A stretch of 64,000 nt of DNA from Candidatus Peribacteria bacterium (GTDB lineage Bacteria; Patescibacteriota; Gracilibacteria; Peribacterales; Peribacteraceae), in the NCBI GenBank assembly GCA_003483925.1, contig DMXL01000007.1:30504-94503 (forward strand), given 5' to 3'. The notes below the pieces were generated by a model, which was not told the DNA's origin, searched no databases, and saw only the letters and a list, made by a program, of their open reading frames with translations. Positions 27,625 to 46,938 of the stretch are shown piece by piece (the first letter of the stretch is position 1; each line of letters begins with the position of its first letter). A program made the translations under genes and the position numbers.

Positions 27625-27626
27625 GT

Positions 27627-27714
27627 GAGGGCTAAGGTTAGGGTTAGGGTTAGGGATGAGGTTACACTGCTGAGATAGTTTCCCTAATCCTAACCCTAAT
27701 GCCTAACCCTAAAT
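27627..27714. repeat. Inverted clusters of telomere-like hexamers (TTAGGG)n / (CCCTAA)n
   Basis: The left arm reads gagggctaaggttagggttagggttagggatgaggtta, the spacer is 17 nt, and the right arm reads ccctaatcctaaccctaatgcctaaccctaaat. The right arm overlaps the TAG stop (27709-27711) of the ATPase gene. Confidence 0.8.
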
Positions 27715-29990: not shown

Positions 29991-30053
29991 CACCGATCGG
30001 GGGTATTTTGCGAGACATAAGACGTAAGCCATAAGCTCACGGCTCACAGCTTT

Positions 30054-31727
30054 TCAATACACCTCCTTCCGGTAGCAATTCTCGCAGTAGATCTGCATCT
30101 CCGTATCCGCGGGGTAGCTCGTGACCATGGGGACGGAACACTTCGCGCACAAGCCTTCGCGCAGCTTCCACGGGTTCTGCTCGCGAGAACGCCGTAGGTG
30201 GCGGCAGTCCGGGCAAGAGTCCGGGAGAGGGATGCGGCGCGCGCGATATACGGCGAGCTCTTGGGGAACGATCTTGTAATTCTTCCCACACTCTTCGCAC
30301 ACGAGCACGCTTTCCATCGCGTCGTTCGCAACCTGATCGATCGCATCGGGCACCCGGTACGTCTGCGCGCGGGGTACGCGCGGCTCGGGCGGGTGCCAGC
30401 GATAGCCGAGTTCCTTCGCCTGCTCTTCCATAAGCGGGAAACGCTCCATCGCTGCGGTCTCGTTGTACGCAAATGGCGCGCAGGAAGCCGGGAAGAATTC
30501 TCCCCATTCACCGTTCACTCTCATGGCCGCGATGATCCGTGGCACGAGGCGCTCGTATTCGTCTTTCGTATACTGCTTGTTCAGGATGCAGTACTGGCTG
30601 CGGCGGAGCCCGATGCATCCGAAAATGTCTTTTGAAGCGGTGATGAAAAAGGAGTAGTGCACGCGCTGGCACCCCGACGTGCGCAGACAGAAGCTCGTGC
30701 CGTACGACGCCGCGACGGATGTGGTTTCGTAGATGAGCTCACTGTCCCTCCCGCCGGTATAAGCGTCCATGGCATCCCGATACAGGTTCACGTCGTAGAG
30801 ATACCGTCCGTCCACGGAATCGAATGCTCCGTAACATTGCAGACAGTTCTTGCAACGGAAGAGATTGTCACCGGTGACGTTCTCGCACTGGATGTTCATG
30901 AGATTGCGGCGAATCGCCTTGCGCCGGATCCCGCGGTACATGCTCTCAGCCATCTTCACCATCTTGCGGGAGCCGAAGTCGAACTCCCGAAGCTTTGCTT
31001 CATATGCATCCTTCGTGAGTTGCTCGTTGAGGAAGTAGTATCGCTTCCCGCGGAGATTGCTGCACATGAAGCAGTCCAAGCAATTGCGACAGTCCAGGAG
31101 AAACGCACAGTTTGCGCAGTCGCTGCAGAAGAAGAGGTAGCGGCTGTCAGTGCAGTTCATGCATTCCACGCACTCGTAAAGGAAGGATGATTTCTTCACC
31201 TGCGTACAATCCGTGCAATCGGAGCTCCGACTCCCGCGGTAGGTGTAGAGCATGTCCTGGGATTGATGTGTACGCGCGCAGAGGTAGCAATTCTTGCTTT
31301 CGCGCACGTCGCTGTTGAACTCGCAGTTCTCCGAGAGCTCCACGCGCAGCGATGGGAGCGGGATCGCGAGCGCGAAGCTCCGGAATTGATCGAAGAACGG
31401 GCGCGCAGCATCGTATGGACGTCCGTATGCAAGCGGATCGAAGGCATCGGAGAACCAGTGGTTCTTCTCACAGACTTTGTGAGGAGAGTCGGGAGAGAAC
31501 ACCGAGATGATGTCCTGTCCCGTGACATCGCATTTTCGCCGGTAGAGCTGCCGCTCGTTTCGAAAGCTCATCCTCCTTCGCTGCCGACAGTCGGGGCACA
31601 GGGTCGGTGGCGGGATGAGCTCCTTCTTCCCGGCGAAGACAGGCGAAACTCTCTCGAGGAACGTGAGGTCGTCCTCCGTGACATCGAAGGGGGCACGGCA
31701 CCAAGAGTTCAAGCAAATCTTCTGCAT
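30054..31727 (-). CDS. Cys-rich array paralogue G1 (uncharacterised zinc-ribbon/Cys-ladder family)
   Basis: 557 aa. The N-terminus reads MQKICLNSWCRAPFDV..PPPTLCPDCRQRRR..YRRKCDVTGQDII. A Cys ladder follows. The C-terminal module keeps all Cys (VCEECGKNYKI..CPDCRH..CAKC..YCENCYRKEVY*). Confidence 0.85.
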   Translation of the reverse strand: MQKICLNSWCRAPFDVTEDDLTFLERVSPVFAGKKELIPPPTLCPDCRQRRRMSFRNERQLYRRKCDVTGQDIISVFSPDSPHKVCEKNHWFSDAFDPLAYGRPYDAARPFFDQFRSFALAIPLPSLRVELSENCEFNSDVRESKNCYLCARTHQSQDMLYTYRGSRSSDCTDCTQVKKSSFLYECVECMNCTDSRYLFFCSDCANCAFLLDCRNCLDCFMCSNLRGKRYYFLNEQLTKDAYEAKLREFDFGSRKMVKMAESMYRGIRRKAIRRNLMNIQCENVTGDNLFRCKNCLQCYGAFDSVDGRYLYDVNLYRDAMDAYTGGRDSELIYETTSVAASYGTSFCLRTSGCQRVHYSFFITASKDIFGCIGLRRSQYCILNKQYTKDEYERLVPRIIAAMRVNGEWGEFFPASCAPFAYNETAAMERFPLMEEQAKELGYRWHPPEPRVPRAQTYRVPDAIDQVANDAMESVLVCEECGKNYKIVPQELAVYRARRIPLPDSCPDCRHLRRSREQNPWKLREGLCAKCSVPMVTSYPADTEMQIYCENCYRKEVY

Positions 31728-31799
31728 ACGCTGATTCTAGCAAGGGATGAGGGGCATGTAGTACGTATTATGAGAGATTGGTTCTCCTGCCCATACCCC
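31728..31799 (-). promoter_or_regulatory. Array junction cassette with extended -10 (TGCTAGAAT) for G1
   Basis: Reverse complement of 31734-31742 is TGCTAGAAT, 6 nt from the ATG. The cassette contains the shared string gaggggcatgtagtacgtattatg. Confidence 0.5.
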
Positions 31800-31910
31800 T
31801 TACTACACCTCTTTGAGGTAGCACTCCTCGCCCATTCGACTCCGTCTCGCTGCGCTCGCCTCCGCTCAGGGTGAATCGTGTTGTAAGCGAAAGAGGAATT
31901 GAGTTGATAT
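31800..31910 (-). repeat. REP-like core plus ghost gene terminus downstream of G2
   Basis: The minus strand after the G2 stop reads ..CACGATTCACCCTGAGCGGAGGCGAGCGCAGCGAGACGGAGTCGA-ATGGGCGAGGAGTGCTACCTCAAAGAGGTGTAGTAA. This gives a degenerate second copy of the family C-terminus (MGEECYLKEV**). Confidence 0.7.
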
Positions 31911-33611
31911 TCAGTATACTTCTTTCAGATAACACGATTCGCAGTACACAATTTCCGGTCTCTCGGGCGCATAGGTCGTCTCCATTGACTTGCCGCACTT
32001 CGCACACGCACGCTTCCAGAGCTTGCGTGGATTGCGTAAGGCCCTGCGTGCGGCATGGCGCACTTCGAAATGCCGGCGCGGGAGAGGCACATGCAGTTTT
32101 CGATAGAGACCAAGCTCGCTCGGCTGGATTTTGAATAGTTTCCCGGATACCTCGCAGCGGATGGCCCACTGGAGCACATCATCGGGAACGGCATCGATCG
32201 TTTCGGGAAGACGATCGCCAGAGACCACCTTTGTGACAGATGGCATTTCCTCGCGCATCTCGCGCCACCGCCATCCGCGTTTCTTCACCTCCTCCTTCGT
32301 GAGCGGATAGTAATCCTGAGCGACGGTTTCGTTGTACGAAAAGGCGGAGAGCGTGGGAGGGAAAAACTCTCCCCATGTCCCCTCTTTTCGCATCTGTTCA
32401 ATAATCTTCGGAGTCAATCGTCCGTATTCTTCTTCCGTGTACTGCGTATTCAGAATGCAGTGCCGCATCTTCTTCAAGCCCACGCAGCCGAAACAATCGT
32501 TGGCACCCTGGAGACAGTAGATGGAGTAGCAGAGATTCGAGACACCGAACGACTGGTAGTAGCAACAAATGAGCCGTTCGACGCCCGCTCCCACGTAGGC
32601 GCAGTTGTACACGAGGTTCATCTTGTCACCCCATGCGTCGACGTCCTGCGCGTCCGATCCGCCCATCATGCAGTTCGTGCAATGACGACAATCGCGCATG
32701 TCCATGCAATCGTAGGAATCATGCATGTTCTTGCAGGAGATGAGGTTGTCGCCCGTTACCTCTTCACTCATCACCGTACGAGTGGCTTTGCGCGGGTATC
32801 TGAGGAAAAGAGCCTCCGCTTGCGCACGCAGCGCCTCCACGCCGGCATGCGTGTGAAGGGCGAATGCCGCCTTCCGGAGAGCGAACTCCTCCTTGGAAAC
32901 CGGCTCATTGAAGATATGATACTCCTTCTGGTGCAGATTCACGCACCCGATGCAGTTCCGGCAACTTGAGCAATCAAGGAGGAACGCGCTATCCGAGCAG
33001 TTGCTACAGAAGCGCGAATACAGCAGATGAAAACACTCCTGGCAGTGGATGCACTCGTAACAGAGCTCGCACTGCTTGAGGCTGTAGAAATCGCAACAAT
33101 CCTTGAGGAGCGCGTAGACTTCGCCATAGTAGGAGTCCTGCGCCTGCTCCCCGTCAAAGATCAGGTAACAGTTCTGCAGACGGTATCCGTCGTGTGCGTA
33201 GTCGCTGTTGATGTTGTCAGTGAGCGCGAGGATGGAGATTTTCGGGACGGCGTACCACAGATCGCGGAATTGATCGAAGAACGGGCGCGAGAAATCGTAC
33301 GCCCTACCGAAGGAAAGAGGATCCCAGTTATCCCCCCACCAGCACGCAGGACAGAAGACGGTAAAGGGGGAATCGGCAGGATAGATGGCGATGATGCGCT
33401 TCTTGCAATGATCGCACACACGCGGGTACAGCGTCCGTTCATTGCGCATGGCCAACCTTCTCTGCTGACGGCAGTCGAGGCAAAAGGCGGGGGGAGGAAC
33501 GGATTCTTTCTTTCTATTGAATACAGGAGAGATCTTGTCATAGAACGCAAGATCATCCTGCGCGATCTCGAAGGCGGAAGCGCACCACGGGTTGGCGCAG
33601 ATTTTCTGCAT
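31911..33611 (-). CDS. Cys-rich array paralogue G2
   Basis: 566 aa. It starts MQKICANPWCASAFEI..PPPAFCLDCRQQRR, contains CFGCVGLKKMRHCILNTQYTEEEY, and ends CAKCGKSMETTYAPERPEIVYCESCYLKEVY*. Confidence 0.85.
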   Translation of the reverse strand: MQKICANPWCASAFEIAQDDLAFYDKISPVFNRKKESVPPPAFCLDCRQQRRLAMRNERTLYPRVCDHCKKRIIAIYPADSPFTVFCPACWWGDNWDPLSFGRAYDFSRPFFDQFRDLWYAVPKISILALTDNINSDYAHDGYRLQNCYLIFDGEQAQDSYYGEVYALLKDCCDFYSLKQCELCYECIHCQECFHLLYSRFCSNCSDSAFLLDCSSCRNCIGCVNLHQKEYHIFNEPVSKEEFALRKAAFALHTHAGVEALRAQAEALFLRYPRKATRTVMSEEVTGDNLISCKNMHDSYDCMDMRDCRHCTNCMMGGSDAQDVDAWGDKMNLVYNCAYVGAGVERLICCYYQSFGVSNLCYSIYCLQGANDCFGCVGLKKMRHCILNTQYTEEEYGRLTPKIIEQMRKEGTWGEFFPPTLSAFSYNETVAQDYYPLTKEEVKKRGWRWREMREEMPSVTKVVSGDRLPETIDAVPDDVLQWAIRCEVSGKLFKIQPSELGLYRKLHVPLPRRHFEVRHAARRALRNPRKLWKRACAKCGKSMETTYAPERPEIVYCESCYLKEVY

Positions 33612-33659: not shown

Positions 33660-33770
33660 TCAATAAACCTCTTTGAGATAGCAATCTTCGCCCATTCGAC
33701 TCCGTCTCGCTGCGCTCGCCTCCGCTCAGGGTGAATCGTGCTGTAAGCGAAAGGGGAATTGGGTTGATAT
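33660..33770 (-). repeat. REP-like core plus ghost gene terminus downstream of G3
   Basis: This is the same 111-nt element as 31800..31910. It ends ..GGAGTCGA-ATGGGCGAAGATTGCTATCTCAAAGAGGTTTATTGA (MGEDCYLKEVY*). Confidence 0.7.
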
Positions 33771-35453
33771 TCAGTATACTTCTTTCAGATAACACGATTC
33801 GCAGTAGACAATTTCCGGCCGATCCGGGGCATAGGTTGTCTCCATCTCCTTGCCGCACTTCGCGCACGCGCGCTTCCAGAGCTTGCGGGGATTCCTTTGA
33901 GCCATCAGCCTGCGATGGCGTTCGTCGGGGTGGAAATGGGAAACGGGAAGCCGCATCTTCCGGTAGAAATCCAGCTCCTGCTTGATGACCCTGAAGGGAC
34001 GCCCCGTGGCTTCGCACTTGATCACCCAGTTCAAGATGTCATCGGGGACATCGTCGATGGAGTCCGGCAGCTTCCGGGCGGGAATCACTTTGTCCGCCTT
34101 CGGCATATCGTCGCGCTCCTCCTTCCATCTCCATCCCCTCTTCTCCGCGTCTTGCTTCGTGAGAGGGAAGAAATCAGAGGCAACGGAGTCGTTGTAGGCG
34201 TAGAGGCTCCTCTCGACGGGAAAGAACTCACCATACTCCTGGGTTTTACGCATATGTTCAATGATCTTCGGTACGAGCGTCTCGTACTCCTCCTTGGAAT
34301 ATTGCTTGTTCAAGATGCAATGTTTTCCTCGCGCATGCAGCCCGTCGCATCCGAAGCAGTCGGATTGGTAGAAGCAGGAGCTTAAGTAGAGGGAGCGCGG
34401 GGAGGCGATGGTGCAATAGCTGAAGCGCGTGAGGTAGTTCTTCTCTCCGCCGGAGGACATCTCGTAACAGAGCTCGATATCCTTGTCGTGTGAGGCCAAG
34501 TCCATGGAATCTTTGACTCCTTCGCACTCGAAGATGTACGAGGAATCCTCGACATTGAAGCAGTCGGAGCAATTCATGGCGTTGCGACAGTTGGAGAGGT
34601 ACGTTCCCGTGGACCCCTCGCAATTGAGCTGGATCTGCGCCCGCTTGGGGACGGTCACGTCGAAGGCGGCGAATTCCGCCTGAAGATCTTCCGGAGAAGT
34701 TTGCCGGTACTGCCGGAGGATGTCCGCATAGGCTTCTTCCGTGAGCTGCTCATTTTTGAAGCAGTACTGCTTGTTACGGATCCCACTGCACATGAAACAG
34801 TCTTTGGCGTTGGTACAATCTCGTAAGTAGTTTGAGAACGAGCATTGACGACAGTTCACGAGGTGATGCGCAGAATTGCAGCCGTCGCAGTTGGTGCTCT
34901 CCGCAACAAGCTCGCATCGGTTGAGCACATTGGAGTTGGCGCAGTCGCGACAGTACTGACTCTTGCGCAGGTAATAGCAATCTTCCACGAAATAACTCCC
35001 CGGACAGAGGTACGCGTTCTTGCTGAAGGCGAGGAGGAGATTATATTCGCAGTTCTCGTTATTCAGCTGGAGAGCGGCCGCCTGCGGCACCGTGTGCTGG
35101 AGCTCCTCGAATTGCTGGAAGAATGGCTTGGAGAAATCGAAATCTCTGCCGTAGTCCATCGGGTCCCAACGATCCGACCACCAGCAATCCGTGCAGTACA
35201 CCGTGTACGGGCTCTCGGGAGCGAAGGAGGAAATGGTCGTTTTCTTGCAGAGACCGCAGGTATGCCTGTAAATGCTATGTTCATTGCGAAACGCGTGCCT
35301 CCGTTGCAGCCGGCAATCGGGACAGAGGGTAGGAGGCGGAATAAGGAATTTCTTCCTGCCGAAGGCCGGTGAAATTTTCTCGTAAAACTTCAAGTCATCA
35401 TCGGTGACCTTGAAGGGGGCACGACACCAAGAGTTCAAGCAAATCTTCTGCAT
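33771..35453 (-). CDS. Cys-rich array paralogue G3
   Basis: 560 aa. It starts MQKICLNSWCRAPFKV, contains CFGCDGLHARGKHCILNKQYSKEEYE, and ends ..HFHPDERHRR..CAKCGKEMETTYAPDRPEIVYCESCYLKEVY*. Confidence 0.85.
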   Translation of the reverse strand: MQKICLNSWCRAPFKVTDDDLKFYEKISPAFGRKKFLIPPPTLCPDCRLQRRHAFRNEHSIYRHTCGLCKKTTISSFAPESPYTVYCTDCWWSDRWDPMDYGRDFDFSKPFFQQFEELQHTVPQAAALQLNNENCEYNLLLAFSKNAYLCPGSYFVEDCYYLRKSQYCRDCANSNVLNRCELVAESTNCDGCNSAHHLVNCRQCSFSNYLRDCTNAKDCFMCSGIRNKQYCFKNEQLTEEAYADILRQYRQTSPEDLQAEFAAFDVTVPKRAQIQLNCEGSTGTYLSNCRNAMNCSDCFNVEDSSYIFECEGVKDSMDLASHDKDIELCYEMSSGGEKNYLTRFSYCTIASPRSLYLSSCFYQSDCFGCDGLHARGKHCILNKQYSKEEYETLVPKIIEHMRKTQEYGEFFPVERSLYAYNDSVASDFFPLTKQDAEKRGWRWKEERDDMPKADKVIPARKLPDSIDDVPDDILNWVIKCEATGRPFRVIKQELDFYRKMRLPVSHFHPDERHRRLMAQRNPRKLWKRACAKCGKEMETTYAPDRPEIVYCESCYLKEVY

Positions 35454-35551
35454 ACGCTGATTCTAGCAAGGAATGAGGGGCATGTAGTACGTATTATGTA
35501 TTATGGGATATGGGATTGGTTCTCCTGCCCATACCCCTTACTACATACCCC
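35454..35551 (-). promoter_or_regulatory. Array junction cassette: structured spacer plus extended -10 (TGCTAGAAT) for G3
   Basis: The -10 is the reverse complement of 35460-35468, 6 nt from the ATG. A 14-bp inverted repeat pairs aggggcatgtagta (35476-35489) with tactacatacccct (35539-35552). It encloses an inner gggatatggg/cccatacccc hairpin. Confidence 0.55.
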
Positions 35552-37231
35552 TTAATACACCTCTTTGAGGTAGCACTCTTCACAGAAAACTATTTCAGGG
35601 CGTTCTGGCGAGTATGTCGTCTCGATCCCCTTCCCGCACTTGGCACATGTCCGGCTCCAGAGGTGGCGAGGATTGCGCAGCTGCATGCGACGACGATGCC
35701 GGCAATCGTGACAGGATGAAGGAATCGGCAAGAGCATCTCCCGATAGAAGCGAAGTTCCTGAGGGATGATCTTGAAATTTCTCCCGCACGTTGCGCAGGC
35801 GAGGGTCTCCTGCAAGATGTCATCCTTGACCGTGCGGATGTCTGGGGGAACCGCGTGTTTGTTGGAAGAGAACCCCCTCTCCTCCATTTCCTTCCATCGC
35901 CATTTTCGCTTGAGGATTTCACCTTTGGTGAGGGGGAAATACTCCTGCGCGACAGACTCGTTGTAGGCGAATGGAGAGCGAGCGGCAGGGAGAAACTCCC
36001 CCCACGTACCGTCCTTGACCATCTGCTCAATGATTTTCTGAGCCAGCTTCTCATACTCTTCTTTCGTGTATTGCTTGTTGAGGATGCAGTAACGCTTGTG
36101 CTTGAGACTGATGCAGCCGAAGAGATCCGCGGAATTATTGTGGCAGCAGTCGCTGTAGAGAAGATCTCTCCCCTCCGCGCAGATGTGGCAGAAGAGGAGG
36201 TGGTATCCCGCCATTCCCGCGTGCAGCTCGTAATTGAGCTGGCTCTGCACCAGCCAGCCGTGCTCGTAGGTGTCCATGGAGTCTTTGTTCTTCCCTGAAT
36301 CGTAAATGTACGCGCTGTCTTCCACGTCACGGCAGTTGAAGCAGTGCTTCACGTTCTTGCAGTTGTAGAGATCGTCTCCGGACACAGAAGTGCAGTTGAT
36401 CTGCAACGCGAAACGGTGCGGGAATGTCAGCTTGAACGCACGCCACTTCTCTGCGAAGGCGGCGAATGCTTCGGGGGAAGTGAGGAGCTCTTCCTTCACG
36501 CGCGCATACTCCTGCGCGGACACAGGTTGATTGAAGATGTGGAGTTCCTTCTGCCGTAGCCCTACGCAGCCGATGCACCGCTCGCACCCCTTGCACTCGT
36601 AGCAGAAGAGACTGTCACGACAATTCTGGCAGGATTGAGAAAAGGCTGTCCCGTAACAGTGCAAGCAGTACGAACAGTCGTAGCATCGCTCGCAATATTC
36701 GCAGTACATCGAGTCCACCACGTTCTTGCTCTCCAGCACCCAGTGACCGTAGTAGCAGTCCTCGCACTTGCCGAGCGCCACGCCCATGTAGCAGTTCTTA
36801 TTGTTCGCGGAATGGCTCGTGTAGATGCAGTTCTCGCTGTGCAGGTTGAAGAGGTAGAGGCGGGGAACACGCATTCGTAGCTCGGCAACCTGTTCGAGAA
36901 ATGGCCGCGTGAAATCGACGTCCGTCCCGTACTCCAGCGCATCCCATTGATCCCCCCACCAGCATTCGTAGCAATAGACGGCGTACGGGGAATCCGGCGC
37001 GTACATGGACACGATAGATTTCCCGCACCGATCACAGGTATCCCGGTACAGATTACGCTCATTGCGCCATGCAAGCCGGCGGCGCTGCCTGCAATCGGGG
37101 CAGAGTGTCGGAGGAGGAATCTCGTACTTCTTGCCGCCAACGCTGGGAGAGAGCTCGTCCAAGAGCGCAAGATCACTCTGTGTGACCTCGAAGGGGGCAC
37201 GGCACCAAGAGTTCAAGCAAATCTTCTGCAT
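35552..37231 (-). CDS. Cys-rich array paralogue G4
   Basis: 559 aa with 43 Cys by my count. It starts MQKICLNSWCRAPFEV. The C-terminal module keeps its Cys (CATCGRNFKI..SCHDCRH..CAKCGK..FCEECYLKEVY*). Confidence 0.85.
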   Translation of the reverse strand: MQKICLNSWCRAPFEVTQSDLALLDELSPSVGGKKYEIPPPTLCPDCRQRRRLAWRNERNLYRDTCDRCGKSIVSMYAPDSPYAVYCYECWWGDQWDALEYGTDVDFTRPFLEQVAELRMRVPRLYLFNLHSENCIYTSHSANNKNCYMGVALGKCEDCYYGHWVLESKNVVDSMYCEYCERCYDCSYCLHCYGTAFSQSCQNCRDSLFCYECKGCERCIGCVGLRQKELHIFNQPVSAQEYARVKEELLTSPEAFAAFAEKWRAFKLTFPHRFALQINCTSVSGDDLYNCKNVKHCFNCRDVEDSAYIYDSGKNKDSMDTYEHGWLVQSQLNYELHAGMAGYHLLFCHICAEGRDLLYSDCCHNNSADLFGCISLKHKRYCILNKQYTKEEYEKLAQKIIEQMVKDGTWGEFLPAARSPFAYNESVAQEYFPLTKGEILKRKWRWKEMEERGFSSNKHAVPPDIRTVKDDILQETLACATCGRNFKIIPQELRFYREMLLPIPSSCHDCRHRRRMQLRNPRHLWSRTCAKCGKGIETTYSPERPEIVFCEECYLKEVY

Positions 37232-37329
37232 ACGCTGATTCTAGCAAGGGACGAGGGGCATGTAGTACGTATTATGTATTATGGGATATGGGATTGGTTC
37301 TCCTGCCCATACCCCTTACTACATACCCC
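37232..37329 (-). promoter_or_regulatory. Array junction cassette plus extended -10 (TGCTAGAAT) for G4
   Basis: Nearly identical to 35454..35551. The -10 is the reverse complement of 37238-37246. Confidence 0.55.
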
Positions 37330-38979
37330 TTAATACACCTCTTTGAGGTAGCACTCTTCACACAGGATTCTGCCGTCATACTCCGTCGGCCAGCTTGTCT
37401 GAGTCCCCTTCCGACACTTCCCGCACGCCACTTCTCGCAAGGTCCCGTCGAAGGGGATCAGGCGGAAATTCTCCTGCAGCCGGCGCATGTAGTACGTAGA
37501 GGGAAGCGGCGAGCCGAGATCTTTTGCGAACGCGATGTCCGCCTCGGCGATCTGGAACGGGCGCCGGGCCACGGAGTCCCAAAAGACTTTCTTCGAAAGA
37601 TCATCGGTGGATGCGTCGCTGCGGTCCGGCACGAGGGAAGCTTCGAGAGTGTCCACCGTTCGTTCCTCTCTCTCCTCTCGCATCCGGAAGCCCTTCCCTC
37701 TCCCCTGTTCCTTCGAGAGAGGCCAGTGAAAGCCCGCTAAGCTCTCCTCGTACGGATTCGCGGCGAAGTGCGCGGGGAAGAATTTTCCGTACTCACCACT
37801 ATACTTCATCATCGCAATGATTGCTGCTTTCTTCTTCTCGTACTCCTCCGGCTCATGGGGCGTATTGAAGATGTGATACTTCTTTTTGACGAGCCCGCAA
37901 CAGCCGAAACAATGCTGGCACTGGAAGCAGTGGGCGCAGTACTCCAGGAACTTGCACTGAATGAGGCCGTAACCGAAGCGGACAGAGTAACATTTATCGA
38001 GAGCGGAGGAGCTCATGTACACCAGCTCGTCCTCGTAGAAGTTCACGCAATCCAAACAGTCTTTGGAGTGCACACCTCCGCGAATGCAGTGAATGCAATC
38101 CTCGACATCCTGCGTCGCAAAAAAGCAATTGATACTCCGCCTGCATCCGTCGAGGTAATTCCCCGTTGCGTCCTCCGAAAGGTCGATCAGGAGCGCGCGA
38201 TGCCAGGCACGGGTCCGGAGCATGTCCAGAAATTCTCTACGCGCTTTTTCATACGTGTTCCGCGAGCGAAAATCGAACTCTCTTGCCCTCCGCAGGTATT
38301 CTTCCTCCGTGTACTGCTGATTACGAATACAGTACTGCTTGTTCCGAAGGTTACTGCAGAGAATGCAGCGGTTGCAGTTGCGGCAATCATAGAGAAAAGC
38401 GCTGTCACTGCACTGTCTGCAATGTAACGTGAAGAGCGCCCGGAAGCAGAAAAAGGAGAATATACAATCGAGGGTGCGCTGCGAATCGCACGAGAAGACG
38501 CTGAATTGGGAATCCTTGACCCTCAACATGCGGAAGCAGTAGCGAAGATTCTCGTCCTTGACGCCGGAGTGGCTGAGATAGCAGTTCCGGGAGTACCACC
38601 AGTCATCCGTGTACTCGCAATTCTCGTTCCCCGCTCCCAGATTGTGCGGGATGGGACAGCGACGGAAGAGTTCCCACATCTGAGGGAAGAGCGGCTTGCG
38701 AAGATCGATCTCGGCCGAAGGCGGATCCGCGTGCTTGATCCACTCGTCCTTGTGCCACACGGGATAAGGACAATCCTGAGAGAAGACGGAGATGATCTGC
38801 TTGCCCGTCTTATCGCATGTGCGCTTGTGGAGCGCCCAGTGTTGCCAGAAGGCGCCGAGGATCTGCCAGCGTGCGATGGGACTTACGTCCGGCTCGCCTT
38901 CGACCCCCAATTTCTTGCGCAGTGCCATCTCGGCGGACGAAACTTCGAAGGTACGACCGGTGACGGGGCAGGTGGGCAT
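37330..38979 (-). CDS. Cys-rich array paralogue G5 (CPVTGRTF subfamily)
   Basis: 549 aa. It starts MPTCPVTGRTFEVSSAEMALRKKLG, so the first N-terminal ribbon is replaced. It ends ..CGKCRKGTQTSWPTEYDGRILCEECYLKEVY*. It begins 7 nt after the G6 stop. Confidence 0.85.
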   Translation of the reverse strand: MPTCPVTGRTFEVSSAEMALRKKLGVEGEPDVSPIARWQILGAFWQHWALHKRTCDKTGKQIISVFSQDCPYPVWHKDEWIKHADPPSAEIDLRKPLFPQMWELFRRCPIPHNLGAGNENCEYTDDWWYSRNCYLSHSGVKDENLRYCFRMLRVKDSQFSVFSCDSQRTLDCIFSFFCFRALFTLHCRQCSDSAFLYDCRNCNRCILCSNLRNKQYCIRNQQYTEEEYLRRAREFDFRSRNTYEKARREFLDMLRTRAWHRALLIDLSEDATGNYLDGCRRSINCFFATQDVEDCIHCIRGGVHSKDCLDCVNFYEDELVYMSSSALDKCYSVRFGYGLIQCKFLEYCAHCFQCQHCFGCCGLVKKKYHIFNTPHEPEEYEKKKAAIIAMMKYSGEYGKFFPAHFAANPYEESLAGFHWPLSKEQGRGKGFRMREEREERTVDTLEASLVPDRSDASTDDLSKKVFWDSVARRPFQIAEADIAFAKDLGSPLPSTYYMRRLQENFRLIPFDGTLREVACGKCRKGTQTSWPTEYDGRILCEECYLKEVY

Positions 38980-38986
38980 GGGAGGT

Positions 38987-40693
38987 TCAGTATACCTCCT
39001 TCAGATAGCATTCCTCGCACAGAATCCTCCCGTCATACTCCGTCGGCCAGCTTGTCTGAGTCCTCTTCCGACACTTCCCGCACGCCACTTCTCGCAAGAT
39101 CCCGTCGAAGGGGATCAGGCGGAAATTCTCCTGCAGCCGACGCATGTAGTACGTAGAGGGAAGTGGAACCTTCAGATCCTGTGCGAAAGCGACGTCCTCC
39201 TTGAGAATCTGAAAGGGGCGAGAAGCGGCTGCATCCCAGTACGGCGTCTTCGTCACCCCTCGACTCGTCCCGCCTCCGCGGGACTCGCTCAGGGTCTGCG
39301 CAAATTGCTCGGCGGCTTCGTCCGCCTGATCGCTTCGATCAGGAACCTCGGAAGAATCCCGCGTATCGGCCTCTCGCTTTTCGTCCCCTTCATGCATCCG
39401 AAATCCCCTCTTCCCCCCTTCCTCCGTCGTCAACGGCCAGTAGAAGCCAGCCAGACTCTCCTCGTACGGATTCGCGGCGAAGTGCGCGGGAAAGAATGTT
39501 CCATACTCGCGACTGCTCTTCATGGCCGCGATGATTTCCCCTTTCTTCTTCTCATACTCCTCCGGCTCATAGGGCTTGTTGAAGATGTAATAGTTCTTCC
39601 CCACTAAGCCGCAGCACCCGAAACAGTGCTGGCATTGGAAACAGTGGGCGCAGTACTCCATGAACTTGCACTGAATCAGGTTGTATCCAAACTTCACGTC
39701 GTAGGAATTATCCTGCACAATCGAGGAGCAATACTGGAGTTCCGACTTGTACGGGCTTATGCAATCCAGTGCATCACGCGTGATGTGGGTGCGAAGAATA
39801 TTCACGCAATCCTCACTTCCTCCCGACATGAAATGACAATTCTCACAATCTTTACATTCATCCAGGTAATTCCCAGACGAGTTTTGTGAACGATCAATGA
39901 AGAGAGCGCGATGCCAGGCGCTCTTTCGAAGCATCTTGAAAAACTCTGTCTTCGCCTGCTCGTAGACAGAACGTGAATGAAAATCCCAGGCTGCAACACG
40001 CTTCTCATACTCCTCTTTGGTAATCTGTTGATTGGCGAAACAATACGATTTATTGCGAAGATTTGTGCAGAACATGCAATGTTGGCAATTACGACAGTCA
40101 TAGAGAAATGCGCTGTCACTGCATTGCCAGCAGTTGAAGGAGAAAAGGACCTGAAAACATTCATGGGAATTGATGAGGTCCACACATCGCTCACTCTTAA
40201 AAGAATACGTGCAGTACTGTGCCGTACGTATCGTATCGATGCGATAGCAGTAGCGAAGGTCTTCGGACAGAACTCCGGAATGGCAGAGATGGCAGTTCTT
40301 GCTGTACCACCAGTCATCGGTGTACTCGCAATTCTCGTTCCCCGCACCCACGTTGTGTGCGATGGGACAGCGACGGAAGAGCTCCCACATCTGAGGAAAG
40401 AGCGGCTTGCGAAGATCGATCTCGGCCGAAGGCGGATCGGCGTGCTTGATCCACTCGTCCTTGTGCCACACGGGATAGGGGCAATCCTGAGAAAAGACGG
40501 AGATGATCTGCTTGCCCGTCTTATCGCATGTGCGCTTGTGGAGCGCCCAGTGCTGCCAGAAGGCGCCGAGGATCTGCCAGCGTACGATGGGACTTACGTC
40601 CGGCTCGCCTTCGATACCCAGTTTCTTGCGCAGTGCCATCTCGGCGGACGAAACTTCGAAGGTACGACCGGTGACGGGGCAAGTCTTCTGCAT
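38987..40693 (-). CDS. Cys-rich array paralogue G6 (CPVTGRTF subfamily)
   Basis: 568 aa. It starts MQKTCPVTGRTFEVSS. Its first ~130 aa and last ~50 aa are nearly identical to G5, while the middle is diverged. Confidence 0.85.
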   Translation of the reverse strand: MQKTCPVTGRTFEVSSAEMALRKKLGIEGEPDVSPIVRWQILGAFWQHWALHKRTCDKTGKQIISVFSQDCPYPVWHKDEWIKHADPPSAEIDLRKPLFPQMWELFRRCPIAHNVGAGNENCEYTDDWWYSKNCHLCHSGVLSEDLRYCYRIDTIRTAQYCTYSFKSERCVDLINSHECFQVLFSFNCWQCSDSAFLYDCRNCQHCMFCTNLRNKSYCFANQQITKEEYEKRVAAWDFHSRSVYEQAKTEFFKMLRKSAWHRALFIDRSQNSSGNYLDECKDCENCHFMSGGSEDCVNILRTHITRDALDCISPYKSELQYCSSIVQDNSYDVKFGYNLIQCKFMEYCAHCFQCQHCFGCCGLVGKNYYIFNKPYEPEEYEKKKGEIIAAMKSSREYGTFFPAHFAANPYEESLAGFYWPLTTEEGGKRGFRMHEGDEKREADTRDSSEVPDRSDQADEAAEQFAQTLSESRGGGTSRGVTKTPYWDAAASRPFQILKEDVAFAQDLKVPLPSTYYMRRLQENFRLIPFDGILREVACGKCRKRTQTSWPTEYDGRILCEECYLKEVY

Positions 40694-40775
40694 ACTCTGA
40701 TCCTAGCAAGGAATGAGGGGCATGTAGTACGTATTATGTATTGGAATATGGGATTGGTTCTCCTGCCCATACCCC
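40694..40775 (-). promoter_or_regulatory. Array junction cassette (short variant) plus extended -10 (TGCTAGGAT) for G6
   Basis: Reverse complement of 40700-40708 is TGCTAGGAT, 6 nt from the ATG. The shared gaggggcatgtagtacgtattatg string is present. Confidence 0.5.
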
Positions 40776-42485
40776 TTAATACACCTCTTTCAGGTAGCAC
40801 TCCTCGCAATACACGATTTCCGCCCTTTCTGGAGCATAAGTTGTTTCAATCGGTTTCGCGCATTTCATACACTTCCGGCTCCAGAGCTTGCGTGGGTTAC
40901 GCAGCATCATGCGGCGGCGGTGACGCTCGTCGGGGTGGAAGTGCGGAACGGGAAGGCGGTGAAAGCGATAGAACTCGAGTTCCTTCTTCACGATCCTGAA
41001 GGGGCGTCCGGCTTGCCCTGAGCCTGTCGAAGGGTCGCCCCCTTCCGACAAAACCGCCCACTGGAGGACGTCATCGGGCACCGCGTCGATGCCGGCGGGC
41101 AAACTCTGCGCCGGAATGACCCTGGAAACTTGCGCGGCATCATCCGTCTCCTCGCGCCAGCCAAACCCCCGTGCCTGAGCCTCCTCACGCGTGAGCGGGA
41201 AATACACCTGCGCCGTCGTCTCGTTGTACGCAAACGGGGAGATCCCCGCCGGGAAAAATTCCCCCCACTCCCTCGTCTGCCGCATGTGCTCGATGATCTT
41301 CGATGCGAGCTTCTCGTACTCTTCTTTCGCGTACTGCTTGTTCAGGATGCAGTACTTCCCGGGCTTCATGCACACACACCCGCACATGTCCGATCCCGTC
41401 TGGACGATGTCGCAGTAGAGGAGGTTTCGAGAGCTCCAGGATCCGTGCGTGAAGATCGTATTGTAGGAGCCGTAGCCGAGGCTCAAGGACTCATACCCGA
41501 GTTGCGCATCCGTCGTGTGGCAGACGTCCAAGAGATCCTTGATCTGAAATCCCGTGAAGATGTAGGCACAATCCTCGCCGTACGAAACATCGAAACAGTG
41601 GCGAAGATTGCGCGAATCCTTGAGGTAATCCCCCGTCACGTTCTCGCAGCTCACCACCTCGCGCGCGCGGTGGATGCTCCGTTCCTTGAGACGGGAAAAT
41701 TCCTGCAACACGTCCTCAAGCTGCCCCTGCGCGACACGATCCATGATCTCCTTCTTGAGGCGTCGATACTCCTCCTGCGGATACTCCTTGTTGCGGATGT
41801 AGTTGCGCTTGTTTCGCAGATTCATGGAGAGCAGGCACTCGGTGCAGCCCTTGCAGTCGAAGAGGAAAGCGCTCGATGAGCAATTGGTGCAGTTCTGGCA
41901 GAAGAACGCCGTGTGGCACTTGTCGACGTCGACGGCTTCGTAGCAGTAGTGCGATTCGGTACAGTCGGACGTATCGGTACAGCCCGTGGACTTGATGACC
42001 TGATAGCCATAGAGACAATCCTCGTTGAACTCGGCGGCGAAGATGAGGTAGCAGTTCTTGTTCGACCCGGAGAGATTGATAAACTCGGAATTCTCGTTGT
42101 TGATCACGTTGAGCGCCAATCTCGGCACCGTGTTCTGCAGTTCTTTCACCTGATCAAAAAACGGACGGCTGAAATCCACTTCCCGCCCGTGGCTCAATGG
42201 ATCGTTGCGATCGGACCACCAGCACTCGGTGCAGTAGACGGGGAACGGACTGCCCGCCGGATACATGGAAATGATGGACTTCTTGCACGCATCACACGCG
42301 CGCCGGTAGAGGCTGCGCTCATTGCGCCAGAAAAGTCTGCGTTGCTGACGGCAGTCGTGACAGAGCGTCGGGGGCGGAATCGCATACTTCTTCCCGCCGA
42401 ATACCGGAAAAAGCTTATCGAGGAGGGCGAGGTCGTCTGAGGTGACCTCGAAACCCGACCGACACTGAGCACAGATCTTCTGCAT
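40776..42485 (-). CDS. Cys-rich array paralogue G7
   Basis: 569 aa. It starts MQKICAQCRSGFEVTSDDL..PPPTLCHDCRQQRR and ends ..HFHPDERHRRR..CMKCAKPIETTYAPERAEIVYCEECYLKEVY*. Confidence 0.85.
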   Translation of the reverse strand: MQKICAQCRSGFEVTSDDLALLDKLFPVFGGKKYAIPPPTLCHDCRQQRRLFWRNERSLYRRACDACKKSIISMYPAGSPFPVYCTECWWSDRNDPLSHGREVDFSRPFFDQVKELQNTVPRLALNVINNENSEFINLSGSNKNCYLIFAAEFNEDCLYGYQVIKSTGCTDTSDCTESHYCYEAVDVDKCHTAFFCQNCTNCSSSAFLFDCKGCTECLLSMNLRNKRNYIRNKEYPQEEYRRLKKEIMDRVAQGQLEDVLQEFSRLKERSIHRAREVVSCENVTGDYLKDSRNLRHCFDVSYGEDCAYIFTGFQIKDLLDVCHTTDAQLGYESLSLGYGSYNTIFTHGSWSSRNLLYCDIVQTGSDMCGCVCMKPGKYCILNKQYAKEEYEKLASKIIEHMRQTREWGEFFPAGISPFAYNETTAQVYFPLTREEAQARGFGWREETDDAAQVSRVIPAQSLPAGIDAVPDDVLQWAVLSEGGDPSTGSGQAGRPFRIVKKELEFYRFHRLPVPHFHPDERHRRRMMLRNPRKLWSRKCMKCAKPIETTYAPERAEIVYCEECYLKEVY

Positions 42486-42615: not shown

Positions 42616-43410
42616 TCAGGTGCCGACACCGGAATCCCAGAGCTGTTCGAACTGCTTGCGATGGACATTCACGAGCTCCGGATGACGGATGATCACGACC
42701 CGCGGGTTGTCCGCATCGCAGATGAAGTGCGCGACGTGATCCTTCGTGAAACCGAGATAGTCCTTCGCCACGGGAATCGAATCGACCAGCCGGGTGGTGC
42801 GCAACTCCTGCGAGTCCCGCTTCGCGAAGGTCTGCGATTCGGGGGAGTGCGTATTGAAAACGCGACAGAACATGTTTCTGCTGAATCTCTTATGCCGGAA
42901 CCCAAGTTCCTCCGGCGCCTCGTCGGACATCCCTGCGACTTTCCAGTAGTTCTGCATGGACCCCATGCAGAGGAACTCGTCACCACAGAGATCGGGGAGC
43001 TTCAGATACTCCTCCCGGAAGGCATCCAGCCCTTCATGCACTTCTATGGGTTCCGTTCCGTCCCGCGCATCCTCCGAGCTGGCATCGATGAACGGCAAGA
43101 AGTGATCCAGGCGTTTGAGGGCCAGTTGCAGGCGCCGTACCTCCCGTTCCTTCGTCGCGAGCTTTTGGATAAGCGCATCGAGCGTCAGCGGCGCGTAGAC
43201 GGATAACTTCTGATTCATCTTCAGTGCCTGCACCAGTCCGCGATCCTGCAAACGCTTCATCGTTCGATAGGCGGTCACGAGATGCATGCTACTCGCGGCA
43301 GAGAGCTCTCCGATCGTTGCGCGGTGGAGCTTCATGAGGAGGAGATACAGTGTAATCTCCTCTCCGCGCAGACCGGCCAAGCTCAAGAGATGTTGGATCC
43401 TGCGACGCAT
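42616..43410 (-). CDS. TrmB-like winged-helix transcriptional regulator embedded in the array
   Basis: The ORF track gives 42616..43488. The ATG at 43408-43410 gives MRRRIQHLLSLAGLRGEEITLYLLLMKLHRATIGELSAASSMHLVTAYRTMKRLQDRGLV (TrmB-type wHTH). A coiled linker and a C-terminal domain follow. Confidence 0.7.
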   Translation of the reverse strand: MRRRIQHLLSLAGLRGEEITLYLLLMKLHRATIGELSAASSMHLVTAYRTMKRLQDRGLVQALKMNQKLSVYAPLTLDALIQKLATKEREVRRLQLALKRLDHFLPFIDASSEDARDGTEPIEVHEGLDAFREEYLKLPDLCGDEFLCMGSMQNYWKVAGMSDEAPEELGFRHKRFSRNMFCRVFNTHSPESQTFAKRDSQELRTTRLVDSIPVAKDYLGFTKDHVAHFICDADNPRVVIIRHPELVNVHRKQFEQLWDSGVGT

Positions 43411-43463: not shown

Positions 43464-45158
43464 TTAGTACACCTCTTTGAGGTAGCAACTATCACAATAA
43501 ACAATTTCTGGTCGTTCGGGCGGGTACGTGGTTTCGATTGGCTTCCCGCACTTGCCGCACTTCCGGCTCCAGAGCGTACGGGGATTGCGCAGCCGCAGGC
43601 GGCGGTCGTAGCGCTCATCGGGATGCAGGTGCGGGAGGGGGAGCTTCTGCTTGCGATAGAAGTCGAACTCTTGCTTGAGGAGCCGGAAGGGGCGGCCCGT
43701 GGCTTCGCAGACAATGGCCCAATTGACCACGTCGTCGGGAACATCTTCGATGCGATCGGGGAGGCTTTCTGCGGGGATCGTCTTGGAGACGACCGGCTTC
43801 TTCTCCACGATGTCTCTCCAGTAGAACCCCTGAGCGCGCGCCTCTTTCTCCGTGAGCGGCAGATACTCGTGCGCCAGCGATTCGTTGTAGCCGAAGGAGG
43901 AGAGTGACGGCGGGAAATACAGCCCCCATTCCTTGCGCGTCTTCATCTGCTCGATGATCTTCGGCACGAGAGACTCGTACTCCTCCTTCGTGTACTGCTT
44001 ATTGAAGATGCAGTACTGCTTGCGCTGGAGGCCTATGCAGCCGAAACAATCCTTGCAGTGGAAGCAGTACTCGCAGTAGAGGAGATTCTGACTATGAAAA
44101 ACGAAGAGGCAGTAGGCCGTGGCATACGTCTCGATCGTTCCGAGCGTCTCATAGGCAAGCTCCGGCTTGATGTACATGTTTGAGCAGTCGTAGTTGTCCT
44201 TCACCTGCACCCCCACGATCACGTAGCGGGAATCCTGGCTCTCATTCAAGTCGTAGCAATCGAGGCAATTGCGTGAATTTTCGATGAAATCCCCCGTGCA
44301 GTTCTCGCTGCTCACGATGTTGGCATGCCGATGGATCATCGTTTTCTTAAGCTCCATCCACTTCCTGCACATCTCTTCCATTTTGGCTGACGAGCTGCGG
44401 AACTCCCGGACGCGGAGCTCGTACTCCTCCTTGGAGAGCGGCTCATTGAGGAAGTGGTACTGCTTCTGATGGAGATTACTGCAGAGGCAACAGTTGCTGC
44501 AGCCGTTCAAGTTCCATGAGAAGAGGCAGTCGCGGCAGTTTGTCGAAAAGGCGACGAAGGCGCAATTGTAGGATTTGAAGACAGAGAAACACTCGTAGCA
44601 GAGCTCGGAATTATAGAGGTAGGAACAGTCCACAGAATCCTTGCAGCTCTGCAAGAGCTTGCCGTAGTAACAGTCCTCACAGTACTCCGACGAGTTGATG
44701 AGGTAGCAGTTCTTGCAGTAGCCCGTGCCCGCCGTGAAATCGCAATTCTCGTTCCCGATCACCATTGAACCGAGGAGCGGCACGGCCTTGTGAAGAGAGC
44801 CGAACTGCTCGAAGAACGGACGGGAGAAGTCGTAGGGACGACCGTGCTCGATGAAGTCGCGCTTGTCATCGTTCCACTCATCATGCGTGTAGACGGCATC
44901 CGCCTGGCCCCAGATGGGCTCCTCGTGATAGATGGAGATCATCTCCTTCCCCGTCAAAGTCGCGGGCCTGCGGTAGAAATTCCTCTCATTGCGATGACAT
45001 GTCCGGATCTTCAAGCGACACTGAGGGCAGTACACCGGAAGCGGAGGGTGGATGACCTGACTCCCGAAGCGGAAACCGATCTTCTGCAGAAACGCCTCTT
45101 CATCGGGATAAATCTCGAAGGGGTGCTGGCACCAAGAGTTCAAACAAATCTTCTGCAC
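43464..45158 (-). CDS. Cys-rich array paralogue G8 (GTG start)
   Basis: 564 aa. It starts (GTG)QKICLNSWCQHPFEI and ends ..HLHPDERYDRR..CGKCGKPIETTYPPERPEIVYCDSCYLKEVY*. The start codon at 45156-45158 is GTG where its paralogues have ATG. Confidence 0.8.
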   Translation of the reverse strand: MQKICLNSWCQHPFEIYPDEEAFLQKIGFRFGSQVIHPPLPVYCPQCRLKIRTCHRNERNFYRRPATLTGKEMISIYHEEPIWGQADAVYTHDEWNDDKRDFIEHGRPYDFSRPFFEQFGSLHKAVPLLGSMVIGNENCDFTAGTGYCKNCYLINSSEYCEDCYYGKLLQSCKDSVDCSYLYNSELCYECFSVFKSYNCAFVAFSTNCRDCLFSWNLNGCSNCCLCSNLHQKQYHFLNEPLSKEEYELRVREFRSSSAKMEEMCRKWMELKKTMIHRHANIVSSENCTGDFIENSRNCLDCYDLNESQDSRYVIVGVQVKDNYDCSNMYIKPELAYETLGTIETYATAYCLFVFHSQNLLYCEYCFHCKDCFGCIGLQRKQYCIFNKQYTKEEYESLVPKIIEQMKTRKEWGLYFPPSLSSFGYNESLAHEYLPLTEKEARAQGFYWRDIVEKKPVVSKTIPAESLPDRIEDVPDDVVNWAIVCEATGRPFRLLKQEFDFYRKQKLPLPHLHPDERYDRRLRLRNPRTLWSRKCGKCGKPIETTYPPERPEIVYCDSCYLKEVY

Positions 45159-45240
45159 ACTCTGATTCTAGCAAGGAATGAGGGGCATGTAGTACGTATT
45201 ATGTATGGGGATATGGGATTGGTTCTCCTGCCCATACCCC
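45159..45240 (-). promoter_or_regulatory. Array junction cassette (short variant) plus extended -10 (TGCTAGAAT) for G8
   Basis: Reverse complement of 45165-45173 is TGCTAGAAT, 6 nt from the GTG. Confidence 0.5.
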
Positions 45241-46938
45241 TTAATACACCTCTTTGAGGTAACACTCCTCGCACAGCACCCTCTCCGCCCGTTTAGGGGC
45301 GAATGTGGACTCAATTTCCCGGCCGCACTCGGAACACGGACGCTTCCAGAGCCGACGGGGCGGCCGTCGCTTTAGACGATCCTCATGCCGCTCCTCCGGA
45401 TGCAGATGCGGCAGGGGGAGATGATGCGCCCTGTAGAACTCCAGTTCCTGTTTGATGATACGAAACGGCCGCTTCGTTTTCTCCGAAGTGACAGCCCAGT
45501 TGAGCACATCATCCGGAATCTCCTCGATTGATTGCGGAAGCTCGCCGGCGGGAATCACCTTCTTCACATTCAAAGGCTCATCCACCTCATCACGCCATTT
45601 GTATCCACGCCTGATGGCCTCTTGTTTGGAAATCGGAAAGTATTCCATAGCGATCGTTTCATTGAATGCGAAGGGGCAAACATCTTTGGGGAAGTACTCG
45701 CCCCATTCGTCAGTCTTCCGCATGTGCGCGATAAGTTTTTCGCGCCGCTTTCCGTACTCTTCCTCAGAATATTCCTTGTTCAGAATGCAGTACTGCTTCT
45801 TCTTCAAACCCACACAGCCGAAACAGTTGCGGCATCCGACACAGCTGTCGCAGTACTCCAGATCGGAATTATTTGTGGCACAGGTGGTGCAGAATTTCAG
45901 ATTGAAGGCGTTATTCCCGCATGCTGAACACTGGTACAGTCGTTCGGCCTTGTCGCCCCAGGAGTTGTAGTCCATGCAGGATTTCACGCCCATCGCCACC
46001 TTGGCGCAGTATCGGCAATCCTCCAGATCCTTGCAGTCCAGGCACTGAAACGCGTTCTTAGAGTCGTACAGATGGTCCCCCGTGCAGTTCTCGTTGCGCT
46101 CCGTTTGCGCGTAGCGCTGCGGCTGACTTACGAAGAACTCCTCCGCCTTCTTGTGGAAGGCTCTCATGCCGTCCGTTGTATCCAAATGAAGCTCGGCTTT
46201 GCGCTTCGCGAATTCCTCTCTGGAGAGCCGCTTGTTGAAGATCATGTACTGCTTCTGCCGCTGGTTAATGCAACCGATGCAATCACGGCAACCGATGCAG
46301 TTCTTGAGAAAAAAGCTTCCGGAACAATTCTGACAATCCTGCGAAGAGAAGACGGCGTGGCAGCCGGTGCAATCCACGCTCTCATAGCAAATTTCACTGT
46401 CGTAGCAATTACTGCAATCGACCATATTTTTGCAGTGGTAGACGCGATTGCTGTAGTAACAGTCTTCGTTGTAGTCCACTTCGAAAGACAGGTAGCAGTT
46501 CTTGAGAAAACCGGCGCAGTTCACGTAGTCGCTGTTCTCGATCGTATCCTGAATCAGGAAACGCGCCTGATGCGGCACCACGTTCTTGAGCGCCAGAAAC
46601 TGCGGAAAGAACGGCTGCGAGAAATCGATGTCGCGGCCGAATGCGAGCCCGTCGAAGCGATCACTCCACCACTCCTCCGGTTCAAAGACAGGAAAAGGAT
46701 GATCCGCGTGGTACTGCGAAAGAATACGTTTGCCGGTGGCATCGGATATGCGCCAGTAGAGCCTGCGCGCATCGCGCTCGATCATGCGGCGCATGAGCCT
46801 GCACTCCGGACAGGATTTGGGATCCGGAACGTCAAAATCGCGCAACAATCTCCGATCATCGTCGGAGATCTCGAAGGATGTGCCGCATTCGACGCAGGCT
46901 TGCCGGCCGAAGGCTGGACGAAGGCTGGAACGCTTCAT
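45241..46938 (-). CDS. Cys-rich array paralogue G9
   Basis: 565 aa with a divergent N-terminus (MKRSSLRPAFGRQACVECGTSFEISDDD..CPECRLMRR). It ends ..CSECGREIESTFAPKRAERVLCEECYLKEVY*. Confidence 0.85.
   Translation of the reverse strand: MKRSSLRPAFGRQACVECGTSFEISDDDRRLLRDFDVPDPKSCPECRLMRRMIERDARRLYWRISDATGKRILSQYHADHPFPVFEPEEWWSDRFDGLAFGRDIDFSQPFFPQFLALKNVVPHQARFLIQDTIENSDYVNCAGFLKNCYLSFEVDYNEDCYYSNRVYHCKNMVDCSNCYDSEICYESVDCTGCHAVFSSQDCQNCSGSFFLKNCIGCRDCIGCINQRQKQYMIFNKRLSREEFAKRKAELHLDTTDGMRAFHKKAEEFFVSQPQRYAQTERNENCTGDHLYDSKNAFQCLDCKDLEDCRYCAKVAMGVKSCMDYNSWGDKAERLYQCSACGNNAFNLKFCTTCATNNSDLEYCDSCVGCRNCFGCVGLKKKQYCILNKEYSEEEYGKRREKLIAHMRKTDEWGEYFPKDVCPFAFNETIAMEYFPISKQEAIRRGYKWRDEVDEPLNVKKVIPAGELPQSIEEIPDDVLNWAVTSEKTKRPFRIIKQELEFYRAHHLPLPHLHPEERHEDRLKRRPPRRLWKRPCSECGREIESTFAPKRAERVLCEECYLKEVY

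Follow-up and report, generated by a model that had tools for sequence, protein, structure and literature searches.

The closest precedent for the locus described here is the lpl cluster of Staphylococcus aureus, in which tandem paralogues undergo homologous recombination at a central conserved block, so that whole gene halves travel together with the junction. Interlocus gene conversion between bacterial paralogues is likewise known from babA/babB of Helicobacter pylori and from rRNA operons, where it leaves sharp, lineage-specific tracts of near-identity in diverged paralogues. Leaderless transcription units, as found in Actinobacteria and Deinococcus, carry a -10 element 6-8 nt before AUG or GUG and no Shine-Dalgarno sequence, and integron cassettes form a row of genes on one strand, each gene being followed by an imperfect palindrome (attC). 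Here we analyse a stretch of 64,000 nt (contig DMXL01000007.1 of assembly GCA_003483925.1, positions 30,504 to 94,503; hereafter the window) from an uncultivated groundwater bacterium of the Peribacteria/Peregrinibacteria within the Candidate Phyla Radiation (CPR), containing 13 tandem paralogous genes (G1-G13). Five of the junctions between these genes carry copies of one repeat, which we call the cassette: probably a junction module with a predicted leaderless promoter, copied into the five places by interlocus gene conversion.

With the lpl cluster this locus would share homologous recombination among tandem paralogues; unlike there, however, the shared tract is short (~180 nt) and anchored in the extreme gene ends, while the gene bodies are anciently diverged, and our evidence comes from a comparison between species, whereas that for lpl comes from many strains. 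As in babA/babB and the rRNA operons, near-identity is sharply bounded and restricted to one lineage, but in contrast to these cases the converted tract is mostly non-coding and contains the predicted promoter, and it would therefore be expression control, not protein sequence, that is homogenised. The resemblance to the leaderless units of Actinobacteria and Deinococcus lies in a predicted TG-extended -10 element 6 nt before ATG or GTG without a Shine-Dalgarno sequence; unlike in those units, the -10 element is in some places of the array formed by the codons that close the preceding gene (GTA TAC TGA). An integron was rejected: the arrangement on one strand with a palindrome behind the gene is similar, but the array consists of paralogues, the window yielded no integrase (Pfam searches of the neighbouring open reading frames (ORFs) returned only TrmB regulators, a VirD4-like ATPase and housekeeping genes), a GTTRRRY/RYYYAAC core as expected of attC is missing from the spacer (which contains no GTT triplet at all), and, unlike in attC, the shared tract reaches into coding sequence on both sides. 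The locus is a new instance of a known process, gene conversion among tandem paralogues, and no new mechanism. What makes it worth attention is a clean and well-bounded case of concerted evolution of expression signals rather than of gene bodies, in a CPR lineage for which neither genetics nor transcript maps exist.

Extent and history of the junction cassette

The near-identical repeat of ~175 bp, which an earlier note on this DNA had pointed out at two junctions, is real (181 nt, with flanks 55-67% identical). The two long copies, at the G9-G10 and G10-G11 junctions (Table 1), differ at four positions (35411, 35424, 35472 and 35474), one more than the note had counted, corresponding to 97.8% identity. 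Each long copy comprises the last 10 codons and the stop codon of the upstream gene, a spacer of 98 nt and ~16 first codons of the downstream gene, the minus-strand reading given in the note agreeing with the sequence. Identity drops sharply on both sides, ~30 nt before the upstream stop codon and at about position +50 of the downstream gene. The flanking coding DNA is, as had been stated, much more diverged: in these gene pairs, blocks of 300 nt flanking the tract have an identity of 50-57% on the upstream side and of 51-67% on the downstream side, which is background identity (unrelated 300-mers, 51.5%), and the chance of at least 177 matches in 181 positions is 2e-40 at a background identity of 55% and 9e-26 at 67%.

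Three shorter versions, also seen before although with slightly shifted limits, are located upstream of G6, G8 and G13 and are 82-84% identical to the long copy. The shared tract of the G8 copy stops ~12 nt inside the gene, and the G13 copy, which lies directly behind a REP-like (repetitive extragenic palindromic) core, has at its beginning a ghost of the gene tail, which is non-coding. Two core sequences of the cassette occur exactly five times in the 64 kb, all on the minus strand and at array junctions, with fewer than 0.05 occurrences expected by chance. Exact-word scans of public genomes and metagenomes with these two cores gave only single chance hits in unrelated organisms, and Rfam has no matching family even at E<=1. 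The tract begins in the conserved tail of the encoded proteins (CEECYLKEVY) and ends in their conserved head (MQK-C..W-C), limits which are as expected of homologous recombination acting on short homologies.

The history of the junctions was approached by a comparison with the syntenic arrays of four related genomes, L001-L003, L004, L034 and L035 (the latter GCA_028711445.1). In a tree built from gene bodies only, the window genes pair with their orthologues in L001 and L004 with a support of 100/100 and the splits between paralogues are far deeper; the paralogues are therefore old. Their pairwise protein identity is 28-49%, with the exception of G8 and G9 (71%). The array of L035, the closest and most informative relative, has the gene order TrmB-G7-G8-G9-(one extra paralogue)-G10-G11, and its proteins are 86% (G7), 84% (G8), 84% (G9), 91% (G10) and 80% (G11) identical to those of the window, yet the cassette is absent from it. 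Its G10-G11 junction measures 6 nt and takes the -10 hexamer TATACT from the last codons of G10 (GTA TAC TGA), and its G7-G8 junction contains unrelated hairpins and a TGCTATACT box. The orthologous junctions in L001, L004 and L034 carry unrelated sequence, too, and the G11 and G6 orthologues of these genomes have other first codons.

Nucleotide identities with L035, computed for individual genes of the window in segments of 45 nt, place the difference at the gene ends. The median for G10 is 91%, whereas its first and last 45 nt are only 58% and 67% identical; G11, inside which the L035 contig ends, has a median of 78% and 58% in its first 45 nt. The control G7, which has no cassette upstream, has a median of 89%, 91% in the first and 76% in the last 45 nt. 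The ends of G10 and G11 are thus anomalously diverged exactly at the cassette, and since the cassette is missing from L035 and the ends of an otherwise 91% identical G10 are diverged, the junctions have been overwritten in the window's lineage. In all orthologous pairs the 100 nt upstream are 47-59% identical, which is background, as compared to 75-88% in the gene bodies, and constraint therefore cannot explain the identity of the cassettes within the genome. In a strain that is 2-6% diverged (run X13), 140 nt of a cassette copy differ by 6 substitutions and a 7-nt deletion. Junction sequence thus turns over quickly between lineages, and the comparison indicates that older junctions gave way to the cassette in place once the L035 lineage had split off, that is by concerted evolution and not by conservation. 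The gene conversion of junctions put forward in the earlier note is what these data favour. A simple tree, (G6,G8),(G13,(G10,G11)), accommodates the five copies with one incompatible site, which points to serial copying with G10 and G11 last; on the same single site, no case can be made for a mosaic or recombinant structure within the copies.

Other junctions of the array are locally homogenised as well, namely G4/G5 (88.6% over 176 nt) and G12/G13 (94.4% over 124 nt). Blocks of 82-90% identity (46941-47157 and 48699-48915; 31804-32067 and 33664-33927; 38528-38827 and 40239-40538) include these two junctions as well as the 5' parts of G8 and G9.

Predicted promoter layout and spacer structure

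As the earlier note had read it, an extended -10 element lies 6 nt from the start codon without a Shine-Dalgarno sequence. In G11, transcription starting 7 nt past the element TGCTAGAAT would begin with the A of the ATG. A recognisable -35 element is missing; at the right spacing stands ACTACA, which matches TTGACA at three of six positions. The 3' third of the cassette is most likely a promoter for a leaderless mRNA starting at the A of the ATG, and the support for this part of the note comes from comparison, the -10 hexamer recurring in independent junctions of three genomes. In the window, L001 and L004 together, ~20 of 28 array genes have a TAnnnT hexamer whose end lies 5-9 nt ahead of the start codon, as against 8 of 580 (1.4%) internal in-frame start-like codons taken as background. 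The junction sequences in which such hexamers occur near the starts include at least eight unrelated ones, and TTGCTAnAnT is a frequent form (also in L034 and L035). Both TrmB genes, a PMT_2 gene and map, all outside the array protein family, have the same layout of -10 element and start, and the habit therefore looks genome-wide.

If promoters abut start codons in this way, many mRNAs of this genome probably are leaderless, which matters for gene calling. The public call of the G11 gene (P0005) has 462 aa instead of 560, is 100% identical over 83% of the length and starts 98 codons late, probably a mis-call resulting from the missing Shine-Dalgarno sequence. Searching the literature for leaderless genes in Peribacteria or CPR, we found nothing specific. 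With putative promoter and N-terminus now almost the same in five of the 13 paralogues, co-expression of this subset is predicted.

Some junctions without a cassette have a comparable arrangement. The family's tail codons, GTA TAC TGA (V-Y-stop), contain the hexamer TATACT, which comes to lie 6-9 nt ahead of the ATG of the following gene (in the window at 38980-38986, between G8 and G9, at 46939-47005 and at 48695-48763; in L035 at 9995-10000), suggesting that the tail of one array gene can serve as the -10 element of the next. Where an inserted spacer separates the two genes, a ghost copy of the tail, which is non-coding, still occupies that -10 position. In L004 (7240-7321), a GTG 6 nt behind CATACT opens the conserved N-terminus M-R-R-K-L-Q of a TrmB regulator, the annotated ATG of which probably is wrong, and the promoter-like block of this gene is also present upstream of the L004 orthologue of G6.

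Regarding the spacer, RNAfold predicts for the two long copies a 14-bp outer stem, including one G-U pair, around a 10-bp inner hairpin (-40 kcal/mol, z -5.3 and -4.3), which is the structure the earlier note had described; for the other three copies this description does not hold, as they have no outer stem. The outer stem is confined to the long copies, since its 5' arm is created by a 14-nt tandem duplication (TAAGGGGTATGTAG) that only these two have and to which nothing corresponds in the other three. The short copies form the inner hairpin at most, of which the G13 copy has lost the 3' arm by deletion, and they fold no better than shuffled sequences (z -0.9, -1.2 and -2.1).

The note had further proposed that each such gene looks like an insulated unit, with a terminator-like structure followed by a leaderless promoter. 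Neither stem is followed by a U-tract (the stem is succeeded by CAUUCCUUGC, and the outer one encloses ~49 nt), and a scan for the terminator consensus made no call at the cassette; behind G13, the last gene of the array, the same type of scan together with folding identified a canonical terminator-like hairpin (Table 1). An intrinsic (Rho-independent) terminator is therefore not supported for the cassette, the U-tract being absent and the structure not being kept in all copies. The idea that every junction is structured was likewise given up: the other array junctions (type B), consisting of a REP-like core and then a non-coding second copy of the tail codons, are unstructured (z -0.25 to +1.8), and the G8-G9 junction is only 7 nt long (38980-38986). 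With strong folds in two of the five copies, no U-tract, unstructured junctions elsewhere and one of 7 nt, terminator insulation of every gene is therefore unsupported. The hairpin may at best be a non-canonical terminator or stabiliser, which is not needed in every copy. It should be noted that the junction upstream of the G8/9 orthologue folds as one long hairpin in L004 (-42.4 kcal/mol, z -4.5) and in L001 (-23.6 kcal/mol, z -3.8). The element in L004 is recognisably homologous to the cassette core, although the hairpin sequence in L004 and L001 is quite different from that of the window; these long hairpins hint at a structure under selection.

A palindrome, TGTAGAAA-N2-TTTCTACA, adjoins the divergent TrmB gene at 54011-54028 and resembles the TGTAGTA/TACTACA arms of the cassette (35539-35545 and 35483-35489). 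Such half-sites could possibly constitute the site of a TrmB-type regulator. TGTAGWA occurs 18 times where 4 occurrences are expected, eight of these being the cassette copies themselves and two belonging to one palindrome, and since the excess consists mostly of these, a TrmB operator is only a lead.

Probable gene conversion and its alternatives

Taken together, the observations suggest the following course of events. A module consisting of the last codons of a gene, a hairpin-forming spacer, an extended -10 element adjoining the start codon and ~15 first codons of the next gene would have been copied by homologous recombination into five junctions within the window's own lineage, the family-wide gene tail (CEECYLKEVY-stop) and gene head (MQK-C...W-C) serving as anchors. 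The copy shared by the G9-G10 and G10-G11 junctions (2% divergence) would represent the latest event, with which the 14-nt tandem duplication making the outer stem presumably travelled along, and the hairpin would fall in the 3' end of the upstream transcript.

Several observations weigh against this account or parts of it. No recombinant molecules were recovered from the Logan contigs of the 2-6% diverged strain, which are short and break at the repeat. Structural support is mixed, as the window's own copy upstream of G8, orthologous to the junctions with the long hairpins, folds weakly (z -1.2). The array was not found in three metatranscriptomes of the same study. Finally, GTG is the start codon in the G6 copy, and in that of G8 TAGAAT is replaced by TAGGAT; the five copies are therefore not functionally equivalent, and they probably are unequal in activity.

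A more far-reaching version would see in the cassette a selected, portable expression module comprising a 3'-end hairpin for the upstream mRNA, an operator made of the TGTAGTA/TACTACA half-sites for the TrmB-type regulators of the array, an extended -10 element and a leaderless start with optimised first 15 codons, which is pasted between junctions to put chosen paralogues under one control and whose direct repeats also drive gain and loss of whole genes. Such a module would be a recombinase-free counterpart of a cassette array; we regard this extension as unlikely.

Rather improbable is also an origin as a small non-autonomous mobile repeat, similar to a miniature inverted-repeat transposable element or a REP sequence, which inserts behind stop codons and has an outward promoter by chance. 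The nested inverted repeats of the cassette would fit, as would the REP-like hairpin cores (GTCATCCTGAGC...GAAGGATGAC) in other junctions of this and related arrays, one of which directly precedes the copy upstream of G13. However, all five copies agree in orientation and in register with respect to the genes, the 64 kb contain no copy at any other place, the tract extends into homologous coding sequence on both sides without terminal repeats or target duplication, and the 14-bp inverted repeat is a secondary duplication of two copies only. Furthermore, the ORFs scanned include no transposase or integrase, the cassette contig in run X6 has ~2.4 times the depth of the flanks and is thus not of high copy number, and the public word scans mentioned above gave nothing beyond chance hits.

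We are equally doubtful about a dedicated recombination site, by which gene bodies are reshuffled, deleted or duplicated in a recombinase-free cassette system, and which corresponds to the junction hot spots suggested in the earlier note. Gene order in L001 and L004 does differ from that of the window (their orthologue of G6, for example, is located at the end of the array), and three of the cassette junctions (G5|G6, G7|G8 and G10|G11) are adjacencies absent from these two genomes. The cassette at G9-G10 sits exactly where the extra paralogue of L035 was gained or lost, which is the sole hint of a cassette-linked change; this paralogue (L035 6498-8195) has no orthologue in the window, its best match being 47%. 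Direct repeats of this kind (180 nt, 98% identity) serve RecA as substrates, and recA and ruv genes have been reported in Peribacteria (PMC4736985). On the other side, L035 has the window's gene order without the cassette, and the rearrangements relative to L001/L004 therefore predate it; the cassette was thus dismissed as cause of the order differences, and for those seen the proposed shuffling of gene bodies is unsupported. No deletion or duplication joint of G10 between the two repeats, 1.8 kb apart, was recovered from population data, in which Logan contigs stop at the repeat, and the same facts would follow from homologous recombination between conserved gene ends of any kind. Irrespective of a dedicated function, repeats this similar and this close are likely to be places in this cysteine-rich gene cluster where copy number changes and assemblies break.

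Very unlikely is an ancient regulatory element that was kept by purifying selection, without any copying. The cassette has a plausible promoter and a stable structure, and related long hairpins occur upstream of the G8/9 orthologue in L004 and L001; but unrelated sequence stands at the orthologous junctions of L035, L034, L004 and L001, the regions upstream of orthologous genes are no more alike than background, G10 and G11 depart anomalously from their orthologues at the ends, and the cassette copy of the X13 strain has the substitutions and the deletion given above. Although short-read metagenome assemblies can mis-join repeats, and one direct repeat in the Peribacter genome paper needed a manual choice of path (PMC4736985), a collapsed or copied repeat is the least credible source of the near-identity, since six runs from at least three studies contain 98% of the sampled words of 33771-37400, contigs of an independent soil metagenome are 100% identical to both flanks and end at the cassette, where depth is raised, and the two long copies keep four private differences.

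The gene array and neighbouring features

The 13 genes lie on the minus strand (30054-53921) and have 549-576 codons each. Their products are rich in Cys and contain C-terminal treble-clef zinc fingers (PF23477 and PF13451 in Pfam); the N-terminus, without a Pfam match, has paired Cys motifs (C..WC, CPDC), which by eye are zinc-ribbon-like. The C-terminal CYLKEVY tail is common to all array proteins and the tail CEECYLKEVY is conserved across the whole CPR family, which is widespread (6665 hits). The nearest named homologues belong to Candidatus Peribacter and Peribacteraceae, and DNA of the array recurs in groundwater and soil metagenomes. A cluster of 14 cysteine-rich genes was described with the first Peribacter genomes (PMC4736985), and probably corresponds to this locus. 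One TrmB-family regulator is encoded between G6 and G7 (42616-43488), a second one divergently from G1 (54049-54804), and a VirD4/HerA-like ATPase ends the array in the window, L001 and L004 alike.

Table 1 Positions in the window of the cassette copies, their predicted elements and adjoining features
Feature	Position	Strand	Remarks
Long cassette, G10-G11 junction	35404..35584	minus	4 mismatches to 37182-37362
Long cassette, G9-G10 junction	37182..37362	minus	fold -40 kcal/mol, z -4.3
Short cassette, G5-G6 junction	45114..45273	minus	83.5% to long copy; start codon GTG (45156-45158)
Short cassette, G7-G8 junction	40679..40808	minus	84.2% to long copy; -10 element TAGGAT (40700-40705); ATG at 40693
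Short cassette, G12-G13 junction	31686..31829	minus	81.8% to long copy; inner hairpin broken; ATG at 31727
Predicted extended -10 element TGCTAGAAT	35460..35468	minus	6 nt before ATG; position common to other junction promoters
ATG of G11, predicted 5' end of leaderless mRNA	35451..35453	minus	inferred
Outer stem, 5' arm AGGGGTATGTAGTA	35539..35552	minus	fold; overlaps last base of G10 stop codon
Outer stem, 3' arm TACTACATGCCCCT	35476..35489	minus	fold; also covers -35 region of predicted promoter
Inner hairpin GGGGTATGGG / CCCATATCCC	35505..35537	minus	fold; intact in four of five copies
G11	33771..35453	minus	560-aa Cys-rich zinc-ribbon paralogue
G10	35552..37231	minus	559-aa paralogue, 45% identical to G11
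Canonical terminator-like hairpin with T-rich tail, after G13 (last array gene)	30023..30048	minus	consensus scan and fold
Soluble VirD4/HerA-like ATPase (DUF8128 and T4SS-DNA_transf)	27709-29952		after G13; Pfam

Outside the array, runs of CCCTAA-like units (ctaaccctaaccct...) are present on the minus strand at 7010-7049, 27625-27664 and 60851-60890, each directly upstream of one of three unrelated genes, which encode a 175-aa ORF, a TPR protein and methionine aminopeptidase.

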